Shown here piece after piece: positions 44,704 to 44,772 of a stretch of DNA of 64,000 bases. The notes below the pieces were generated by a model. The model saw only the letters and a list, made by a program, of their open reading frames with translations. It was not told the DNA's origin and ran no database searches. Position numbers and translations under genes: made by a program. Source of the stretch: Candidatus Gottesmanbacteria bacterium (GTDB lineage: Bacteria; Patescibacteriota; Microgenomatia; JAMCYU01); NCBI GenBank assembly GCA_043801155.1, contig JAZDMI010000011.1, positions 27,439 through 91,438 of the forward strand, read 5' to 3'. The first letter of the stretch is position 1; each line of letters starts with the position of its first letter.

Positions 44704-44772
44704 AGAGCTGGGGACGGTACTCAGCTCGAACTCGCCTCGCTTCGCGGTCGAAGCGGGCCTCTTCCCGTTATG
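44704..44772. repeat. GC-rich structured intergenic element (copy C of the mini-element family)
   Basis: Two hairpins, gagctg-N11-cagctc and cgcttcg-cggt-cgaagcg. Shares the gcttcgc...gcgggc core with the inserts at 38198 and 52403. Confidence 0.5.

Follow-up and report, generated by a model that had tools for sequence, protein, structure and literature searches.

The question raised here is what two adjoining GC-rich hairpins represent in a 64,000-nucleotide stretch of DNA from a Candidatus Gottesmanbacteria bacterium (contig JAZDMI010000011.1, positions 27,439 to 91,438 of the forward strand, assembly GCA_043801155.1), referred to below, as a whole, as the window. The two hairpins, designated hairpin 1 and hairpin 2, form an island of 68 nt with about 65% GC, against a genome mean of about 35%, within an AT-rich gap (44654-44874) flanked by two minus-strand genes that encode a GT2-like protein and an inositol monophosphatase. 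A first-pass annotation of this DNA had described the island as a single double-hairpin element, related to the mini-elements inside coding regions (copies A and B), and had considered that it might be the intergenic or master form of that family, a small structured RNA or a protein-binding site. The double-hairpin sequence is present between these two genes as described. The explanation favored here, with a probability of roughly 0.7, is composite: a decayed, attachment-site (att)-like relic of a tRNA-Gly 3′ end that closes a gene cassette, next to one copy of a dispersed palindrome resembling the repetitive extragenic palindromes (REPs) and the Rickettsia palindromic elements (RPEs). Judged from sequence comparison, hairpins 1 and 2 appear to be two unrelated DNA-level features that happen to adjoin.

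Hairpin 2 as a Copy of a Dispersed Repeat

Hairpin 2 consists of a GC stem of 10 bp, interrupted by a single bulged T, and a tetraloop; the inner arms are lengthened by GCC/GGC around the bulged T at 44737, with gggcc downstream. Metagenome contigs were scanned with the exact pattern CTCGCCTCGCTTCGNNNNCGAAGCGGGCC, which specifies 25 bases and has a chance expectation of about 0, and the core CTCGCC-T-CGCTTCG-nnnn-CGAAGCG-GGCC was matched exactly in at least 120 contigs. The 100 non-identical contexts listed among these matches, to which all counts of contexts below refer, range from 31 to 63% GC, have unrelated flanks and come from many JGI and ENA samples. Hairpin 2 therefore belongs to a repeat family with related copies elsewhere, as had been supposed, and this family is far larger than could be seen within the window.

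Sixteen loop types occur among the listed contexts, namely CGGG (48), CGGT (14), CAGG (9), GAGT (8) and 12 rarer types. The copy in the window, designated copy C, carries the minority CGGT loop and is an ordinary copy, with nothing that would mark it as the "master" form. The rarer stem variants are compensatory (CGACTCG/CGAGTCG and CGCTCTG/CGGAGCG), suggesting that the hairpin stem is maintained in the family through paired changes. A covariance model (R1) built from 88 metagenome copies, which is very narrow because the stems used for training are identical, scores copy C at 52.4 bits (E 1.8e-10), the sole match in the window with an E value below 1. Ahead of the stem, the flank consensus reads ..CTCG|CTC, with G at position -1 in 84% of copies; extended forms of the repeat measure about 60-75 nt, compared with 29 nt for the core, and flank subfamilies are present among the copies. 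The proposal that the flanks form an extended stem was rejected, pairing being not above a mismatched-pair control (p = 0.19), which is a weak control given the consensus words common to the flanks. The literature was looked through by sequence, by encoded peptide and by topic, and no description of the hairpin repeat was found there; the family is apparently undescribed.

Folding energy contributes little to this picture. The 101-nt region around the island folds with z = -1.6 on the plus strand and z = -2.0 on the minus strand, hairpin 2 folded as DNA gives z = -2.2, and the fold energy of the island is thus only modestly unusual; the island is recognized as non-random because hairpin 2 recurs elsewhere, and not because of its folding energy. 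Local origin of hairpin 2 by template switching, inverted duplication or chance GC-rich sequence, with no copying involved, can draw on the resemblance of the flanking GAAGAGG to the inner GAAGCGAGG, and on the fact that one 7-bp GC hairpin is not very improbable in this DNA, since 8 perfect 7-bp GC-rich hairpins were observed in the window compared with 2.8 in locally shuffled sequence. It is refuted by the exact occurrence of a 25-base pattern in at least 120 contigs that are AT-rich to moderately GC-rich, while 2.9 million viral contigs contain 0 matches to the core pattern and 3 Mb of random 65%-GC sequence yield only 11 loose ones, so that such an origin is scarcely credible. The viral contigs likewise contain 0 matches to the hairpin-1 pattern, and a scan of them with the termini of copies A and B (GACCTGCCCGCCA...GGCGGGG) gave 5 matches, which are ascribed to chance because all of them lie in DNA of 57-68% GC.

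An assembly or library artefact, for example an adaptor-like hairpin spliced into contigs, might be suspected because a core recurring unchanged from project to project could stem from a reagent. Copies within long open reading frames (ORFs) leave the frame intact, 16 loop types and compensatory stem variants occur, flank subfamilies exist, and the repeat is present in independent NCBI, JGI and ENA assemblies, all of which render an artefact extremely improbable.

Genomic Positions of the Family Copies

Depending on whether strict or lenient assignment is applied, 39 to 61 of the 100 listed contexts place the copy inside a long ORF, and the 39 strict cases are divided between the two orientations (18 one way and 21 the other way). 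The host ORFs include those of ValRS, LeuRS, UvrB, DNA ligase and a P-type ATPase. In ValRS, the copy forms a 9-aa insertion directly after the conserved LGWP motif, as seen by comparison with T. thermophilus ValRS (PDB 1gax). The reading frame is kept in long host ORFs; direct reading of the sequence demonstrates that the core is free of stop codons in all six frames, and for this reason in-frame copies survive in essential genes as insertions of at least 9 codons. The intergenic copies among the matches listed comprise 15 between tandem, 6 between divergent and 3 between convergent genes, with no preference for gene 3′ ends. As a separate observation, the ValRS with the hairpin insertion in L121 (7402-10614, minus strand) also has a histidine-phosphatase-like domain of about 150 residues (PDB 1ebb, 1h2e) that is without counterpart in the aligned T. 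thermophilus enzyme.

Housekeeping proteins common to the matched loci and the window are only 35-62% identical, indicating that the hosts are distant, and across them the core does not differ at any of its 25 specified positions, exact matching being required by the search. A linked transposase or other accompanying gene was also considered as a candidate and rejected, because all-against-all clustering of 2106 ORFs from the matched loci returned only duplicates of the same loci.

An Orthologous Locus without Hairpin 2

In L006, the closest relative, the orthologous locus is about 88% identical in DNA sequence and is without exactly the 27 bases corresponding to hairpin 2, the gap being clean and its flanks 85-88% identical to the window. 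Because the L006 block lacks exactly these 27 nt, hairpin 2 is an insertion or deletion inside an otherwise conserved region, and the locus is conserved but for hairpin 2. Identity between the window and L006 amounts to 75% over tRNA-Gly, 81% over the leader that follows it, 88% over the 3′ spacer of the cassette and 85% over hairpin 1, while the GT2-like gene is 87% identical at the DNA level overall, 80% at third codon positions and 81% at the amino acid level. Right after hairpin 1, the homology ends abruptly (40% beyond), which points to hairpin 1 as the terminal feature of the unit conserved with L006. The description of the two hairpins as one element could not be upheld, since L006 has hairpin 1 without hairpin 2, and hairpin 1 lacks covariation and is part of the tRNA-Gly-like repeat described in the next section.

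Elsewhere in L006 (5330-5720), a tRNA-like gene (acceptor GGACGAT / ATCGTCC) is split into a 5′ and a 3′ half about 300 nt apart, and the gap between them holds an intact tRNA-Val together with a GC mini-hairpin (GGCGGACCCGCCAG...GGCGGGGAA).

Hairpin 1 within a tRNA-Gly-like Boundary Repeat

The motif GAGTTCGAGCnnAGTACnnTnnCCnAnCTC, which characterizes the boundary repeat termed C-type, occurs in six copies: once each in the window, L006 and L024, and three times in L104. In the sense orientation, the genes 5′ of these copies encode the GT2-like protein (window and L006), a HIT protein (L024) and, in L104, an ANT-like nucleotidyltransferase, an unknown 246-aa protein and a HAD hydrolase. Hairpin 1 does not covary over the six copies, three to four of which have its two inner pairs disrupted; the outer GAGC/GCTC pairing exists because the T-loop and acceptor-end remnants are conserved. 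The repeat would be a decayed duplicate of the tRNA-Gly 3′ end, extending from a T-loop remnant (GTTCGAGC) to ...CCAGCTC, and "hairpin 1" would be an incidental pairing of GAGC in the T-loop remnant with GCTC in the acceptor-end remnant.

A connection to tRNA-Gly is seen in L104, where one repeat (copy 2) together with its downstream leader is identical at 33 of 38 positions to the tRNA-Gly 3′ end and leader of L024, a value that none of 400 shuffles reached. The leader GTGACAGAAATAAA... follows genuine tRNA-Gly 3′ ends in the window, L006 and L024, and follows boundary repeats in L104. A leader-like segment is also found after the boundary repeat of the window, an alignment that is weak by itself.

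The GT2-like gene is rare, with 10 homologues among 5.8 billion proteins, and it lies downstream of tRNA-Gly in four of the four contexts examined. It follows the tRNA directly in the window and in L006; in L008, the two are separated by a GC-rich stretch of about 200 nt and a tRNA-end repeat, and in L007 a GIY-YIG ORF lies between them. Exact copies of the tRNA-Gly 3′ end (TTCGATTCCCCCTACCCGCTCCA) flank the homologous GT2-like gene of L008. Two further observations concern these loci. Three tRNA-Gly 3′-end copies are present within L008 1042-2270, one in the intact tRNA, one just upstream and one just downstream of the GT2-like gene, with a GC-rich stretch of 80 nt ahead of the middle copy. 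In L007 (1391-1507), between tRNA-Gly(TCC) and the GIY-YIG ORF and thus upstream of the GT2-like homologue, a pair of GC hairpins built from common arms (GAGCGAGGCTCG...GGCCCGCTC) contains 8-mers that also occur in the repeat core, in swapped order.

In L104, the tRNA order is the same as in the window (tRNA-Asp, tRNA-Gly(CCC), tRNA-Thr(CGT)), and the Gly-Thr interval is longer. That interval (4480-8240) contains at least 4 tandem intergenic modules, each composed of a spacer, a GC hairpin, a pseudo-tRNA-Gly end and a leader, and each placed ahead of a small accessory gene; the genes encode the ANT-like nucleotidyltransferase, the unknown 246-aa protein, the HAD protein and a cupin. The fourth module carries a different, B-like GC hairpin at the same position. 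This array looks integron-like, though without attC core motifs or an integrase seen in it. The cassette of the window reads as tRNA-Gly(CCC), conserved leader, GT2-like gene, conserved 3′ spacer and boundary repeat; such cassettes, with different accessory genes, occupy the interval between tRNA-Gly and tRNA-Thr in relatives and, judging from the pattern left behind, would have originated by site-specific integration at the tRNA-Gly 3′ end.

Alternative Functions and Weight of the Evidence

The main rival is a functional reading, in which boundary repeat and GC hairpin jointly make up a recombination site (attC-like or attP/attR-like) at which a recombinase encoded elsewhere inserts and excises single-gene cassettes at tRNA-Gly; the hairpin would then be a required structural part and not a passenger. 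The tandem L104 modules, at least four in number, each ahead of a small accessory gene and the first of these ANT-like, are in keeping with it, as are the GC hairpins found at the same position in five of the six boundary repeats, the B-like hairpin of the fourth L104 module, and the occurrence of the same GT2-like cassette after three different tRNA-Gly isoacceptors. Against this stand the lack of an RYYYAAC/GTTRRRY pair around the modules on inspection, the lack of an integrase in the window ORFs scanned or in L104, the occurrence of the core hairpin at about 100 sites without cassette context among the matches listed, many of them in ORFs, and the retention of the boundary repeat without the hairpin in L006. 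Such a site is accordingly regarded as an improbable explanation.

The island could alternatively act at the RNA level as part of the GT2-like transcript, being a 3′ stabilizer, a factor-dependent terminator or a tRNA-like processing signal for RNase P or RNase Z. Each of the six C-type elements has a sense gene ahead of it and a promoter-like leader after it, a G-C to G-U change in hairpin 1 of L006 is tolerated only on the minus (sense) strand, and REPs are thought to work in this way (PMC3733652). Against it, the sense strand is without a T-run, hairpin 1 does not covary and its L024 variant pairs only on the opposite strand, and the hairpin-2 family has neither an orientation bias in ORFs nor, with the tandem, divergent and convergent counts given above, an intergenic 3′-end bias. 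A tRNA or transfer-messenger RNA (tmRNA) gene was rejected, as ARAGORN (default and relaxed) and Rfam, including RF00005, gave no match at the island, and ARAGORN at a 60% threshold produced just a junk call with a 4-nt anticodon. Rfam 15 yielded nothing at the gathering threshold in the window island or in 12 full-length family loci, the top sub-threshold match being sR15 with E 0.42. A role in the transcript is quite improbable on this evidence, and the small structured RNA proposed by the first-pass annotation is unlikely in view of the missing Rfam match and of ORF copies in both orientations.

The earlier statement that the island contains no T-run and is therefore not a classical terminator is correct for the coding strand only: on the transcribed minus strand no T-run follows the hairpins, and the search for an intrinsic terminator there was negative, whereas a T5 run (44775-44779) is present on the plus strand 16 nt past hairpin 2, where a terminator scan reported a weak terminator-like site (44752-44779, plus strand). 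No gene reads in that direction.

The composite explanation would account for these features as follows. Copy C is one copy of a very small dispersed palindrome that is present or absent at orthologous sites and would spread as DNA in a REP/RPE-like manner, most plausibly through a hairpin-recognizing enzyme acting in trans. It would be a passenger without dedicated function for the flanking genes, and any 3′ mRNA-stabilizing effect of hairpin 2 would be secondary. The bulged base and the conserved 5′ flank may recall the substrates of HUH/Y1 enzymes, with no such gene found; specifically, a RAYT (Y1 transposase) gene was not seen among the clustered neighbors or the 27 window ORFs. The hairpin element is also a possible protein-binding site, the remaining suggestion of the first-pass annotation.

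Several points weigh against the composite explanation. The exact-match design of the search inflates the apparent conservation of the core. As a GC hairpin of some kind occupies the corresponding point in five of the six boundary repeats, L006 may have lost the hairpin rather than the window having gained it, and the hairpin may be a functional part of the boundary site. The junctions at the sole empty site, that of L006, are ambiguous and no target-site duplication is definable there, and no consistent duplication is present in the family flanks when these are compared with the criterion for miniature inverted-repeat transposable elements (terminal inverted repeats plus target-site duplication). 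The similarity of the window boundary repeat to the window's own tRNA-Gly is weak (p = 0.065), and the link between them is transitive through the L104 copies because the window repeat is too decayed. Finally, no integrase or transposase is found in the 27 window ORFs scanned or near the repeats.

A more far-reaching version is considered rather unlikely. According to it, the hairpin of about 29 nt would be mobilized in trans by a hairpin-specific enzyme, spread actively and horizontally among CPR-type and other uncultured bacteria, routinely add 9-13 residues to essential proteins, and double as the attC-like structured part of tRNA-Gly-anchored, integrase-less arrays of single-gene cassettes, which would capture genes at tRNA 3′ ends in an integron-like manner.

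Relationship to Copies A and B

A fuzzy search for the core, in which up to 3 substitutions per arm and loops of 3-7 nt were allowed, recovers copy A, with a null expectation of 0.007 matches per locally shuffled window; the same search found none in 50 kb of GC-rich DNA and, as noted, 11 in the 3 Mb of random 65%-GC sequence. Local alignment of copies C and A gives p about 0.003-0.007. Copy A has the CCCGCC...GGGCG ends of a variant subfamily found in L027, L066 and L114, and compared with the PDB structures of GmaR and SunS it is GC-rich DNA that adds 12 residues in frame, immediately ahead of the DxD region of a GT2 glycosyltransferase. The relationship between the hairpin core and copy A, postulated earlier, thus proves real though diverged, and copy A is a diverged family member. 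Apart from it, no further copies of the copy C type were found in the window by blastn-short or the covariance model.

Copy B, a 13-residue insertion relative to S. aureus GatD (5n9m), is tied to copy A only by the 13-mer GACCTGCCCGCCA, which is read in a different frame. It was not recovered by the covariance model or the fuzzy search and has no detectable relation to the core, so that the proposed family of coding-region mini-elements stands for copy A and not for copy B, whose membership is, on sequence, unproven. The words CCTGCC/GGCAGG of copy B reappear in the flanks of L019 and L070 and in the fourth L104 module.

Features of the Locus and Its Surroundings

The features discussed above are compiled in Table 1.

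Table 1. Positions of the hairpins, the cassette components and the related copies within the window.
Feature	Position	Strand	Remarks
Hairpin 1	44705-44727		GAGCTG (44705-44710), 11-nt loop gggacggtact, CAGCTC (44722-44727)
Hairpin 2, stem-loop	44734-44758		CGCTTCG (44738-44744), CGGT loop (44745-44748), CGAAGCG (44749-44755)
Dispersed hairpin repeat core, copy C	44731..44759	+	CTCGCC T CGCTTCG CGGT CGAAGCG GGCC
27-nt insertion/deletion relative to the L006 orthologous locus	44734..44760	.	From alignment; ends uncertain by a few nt
Degenerate tRNA-Gly 3′-end-like boundary repeat (C-type)	44705..44733	-	GAGTTCGAGC TGAGTACCGTCCC CAGCTC; contains hairpin 1
Conserved 3′ spacer of the GT2-like cassette	44761..44874	-	88% identity to L006 over 44773-44874; 9/12 over 44761-44772
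GT2-like cassette gene, 291 aa	44875..45750	-	PF00535, 28 bits (weak)
Leader GTGACAGAAATAAACATAAA... joining tRNA-Gly and the cassette gene	45751..45798	-	Conserved in the window, L006 and L024
tRNA-Gly(CCC), proximal cassette boundary	45799..45873	-	ARAGORN and Rfam
Leader-like ATCTACAGAAATTTATACAAAATAAT after the boundary repeat, upstream of the inositol monophosphatase gene	44667..44692	-	Aligns to tRNA-Gly leader ACAGAAAT..TA.ACA.AAAT
Inositol monophosphatase (SuhB-like) gene	43802..44653	-	PF00459, E 2.5e-56; probable true start 44629
Copy A	38202..38231	+	CCCGCC A TGCTTCG CAAGG CGATGCG GGCG, in GT2 ORF 37976..38758 (+)
Copy B	52401..52445	+	GC-rich in-frame insertion in GatD-like amidotransferase ORF 51840..52652 (+)

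The 275-aa form of the inositol monophosphatase is 100% identical to a protein from an NCBI Gottesmanbacteria metagenome-assembled genome, and the GT2-like protein on the other side of the island likewise has a 100% identical NCBI counterpart from such a genome. A role of the island as leader or riboswitch of this gene was considered and rejected, as the upstream regions in five relatives (L001-L005, 72-79% amino acid identity) are unrelated and contain no similar element.

Other repeats of the window lie near tRNA genes. Immediately upstream of tRNA-Thr(CGT), a tandem direct repeat comprises two copies of AATTAAAGTGCTTGCACTGAGCGAA (about 43296-43345, minus strand). Near-identical 33-nt palindromes, CACTGTAAAATCG(A/T)TTAATTTTACAGTG, are located at 45872-45904 and 46790-46822, directly upstream of tRNA-Gly and tRNA-Asp, respectively, and may serve both genes as operator, promoter or terminator. 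Direct and inverted copies of a repeat made up of A and T alone (ATATATGATATATCAATATATCATATAT) lie at 406-457, 34863-34914 and 42286-42336.

The same 13-residue-like tail, followed by a stop codon, is encoded on the plus strand at 17191-17232, 18277-18318 and 19498-19539. The first of these is the end of an unannotated ORF (16090..17232) and resembles the C-terminal peptide of FtsZ; the other two lie outside the listed ORFs of at least 90 aa, and any ORFs there would be short. The three tails may represent reuse of the partner-binding peptide at the FtsZ C-terminus.

Significance

Bacteria of the candidate phyla radiation (CPR) possess tiny, streamlined genomes that are generally described as poor in mobile DNA. 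The hairpin repeat itself has no room for a coding sequence. Twenty-five identical positions in at least 120 contigs of distant hosts, including copies within essential genes, imply either trans-acting machinery or strong sequence-specific selection, and either one would open a new approach to the genome dynamics of uncultivated lineages. The core can serve as a clean marker for insertion and empty-site polymorphisms in metagenomes and helps to recognize insertions peculiar to one lineage when proteins are aligned or their structures modeled. In addition, the tRNA-Gly cassette arrays point to a gene-exchange hot spot with accessory genes, among them a nucleotidyltransferase of the aminoglycoside-resistance type.

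Comparison with Known Systems

Insertion between an intact tRNA and a direct repeat of its 3′ end is a property that the cassettes appear to share with elements flanked by tRNA 3′-end att repeats, including integrase-less, cis-mobilizable remnants and tandem accretions; L008 has exact copies of the repeat, and those in the window, L006, L024 and L104 would be degenerate. The cassettes differ from such elements in measuring only about 1.2 kb, in containing one accessory gene and no integrase (the GT2-like gene only in this case), and in having a conserved module of spacer, hairpin and leader at each boundary. Integron cassettes are similar in that the accessory genes of the L104 arrays stand singly and promoter-proximal, with a structured repeat after each, and different in that the anchor here is a tRNA gene instead of attI, with no RYYYAAC...GTTRRRY core sites and no IntI gene seen. 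Identification as an integron attC was therefore rejected, R″ (RYYYAAC) and R′ (GTTRRRY) being absent on inspection of the window element and the L104 modules, and an integrase being absent among the ORFs scanned.

Small dispersed repeats offer parallels to hairpin 2. Those of cyanobacteria, attributed to Elhai et al. in 2008, and the GC clusters of yeast mitochondria are reportedly very small (about 20-50 nt), hairpin-forming and too short for any coding content. Both are present or absent at orthologous sites, lie in genes and in other repeats, and form GC-rich islands in AT-rich DNA. The hairpin repeat differs from both in sequence and hosts, is without a defined target-site duplication and spans many distantly related uncultured bacteria. 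RPEs are palindromes found in frame within genes of an AT-rich, reduced genome, where the added peptide segment is tolerated, as is the case for the copies in ORFs. Classical RPE-1 measures about 100-150 bp. RPEs are Rickettsia repeats and longer, compared with a core of 29 nt and observed insertions of 9-13 codons here, and they are set apart on the basis of their description, with no RPE sequence aligned and no sequence similarity claimed.

REPs, in particular the GTAG- and CGTC-tagged super-families (Di Nocera et al. 2013, PMC3733652), are likewise GC-rich imperfect palindromes of 20-40 bp with a short loop and many dispersed copies, some of which lie within genes, including replication and repair genes, and no dedicated transposase is known for the CGTC type. 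The hairpin repeat is distinguished from them by the absence of a GTAG, CGTC, TGTC or CCTC tag, its 5′ flank being (CTC)G + CTC, by a stem that starts with G-C where CGTC REPs start with A/T pairs, and by its bulged T and 10-bp stem. In addition, REPs are predominantly extragenic and located downstream of ORFs, whereas 39-61% of the hairpin-repeat matches listed are intragenic, and the core of the hairpin repeat is identical across only distantly related hosts. Membership of the CGTC or GTAG REPs was rejected on these grounds, the defining tags being absent and the genomic distribution different. Since the REP tags are absent, RPEs are longer and specific to Rickettsia, and no attC cores were seen, the hairpin repeat is not assigned to a described family, and it takes its place among the small dispersed palindromic repeats.

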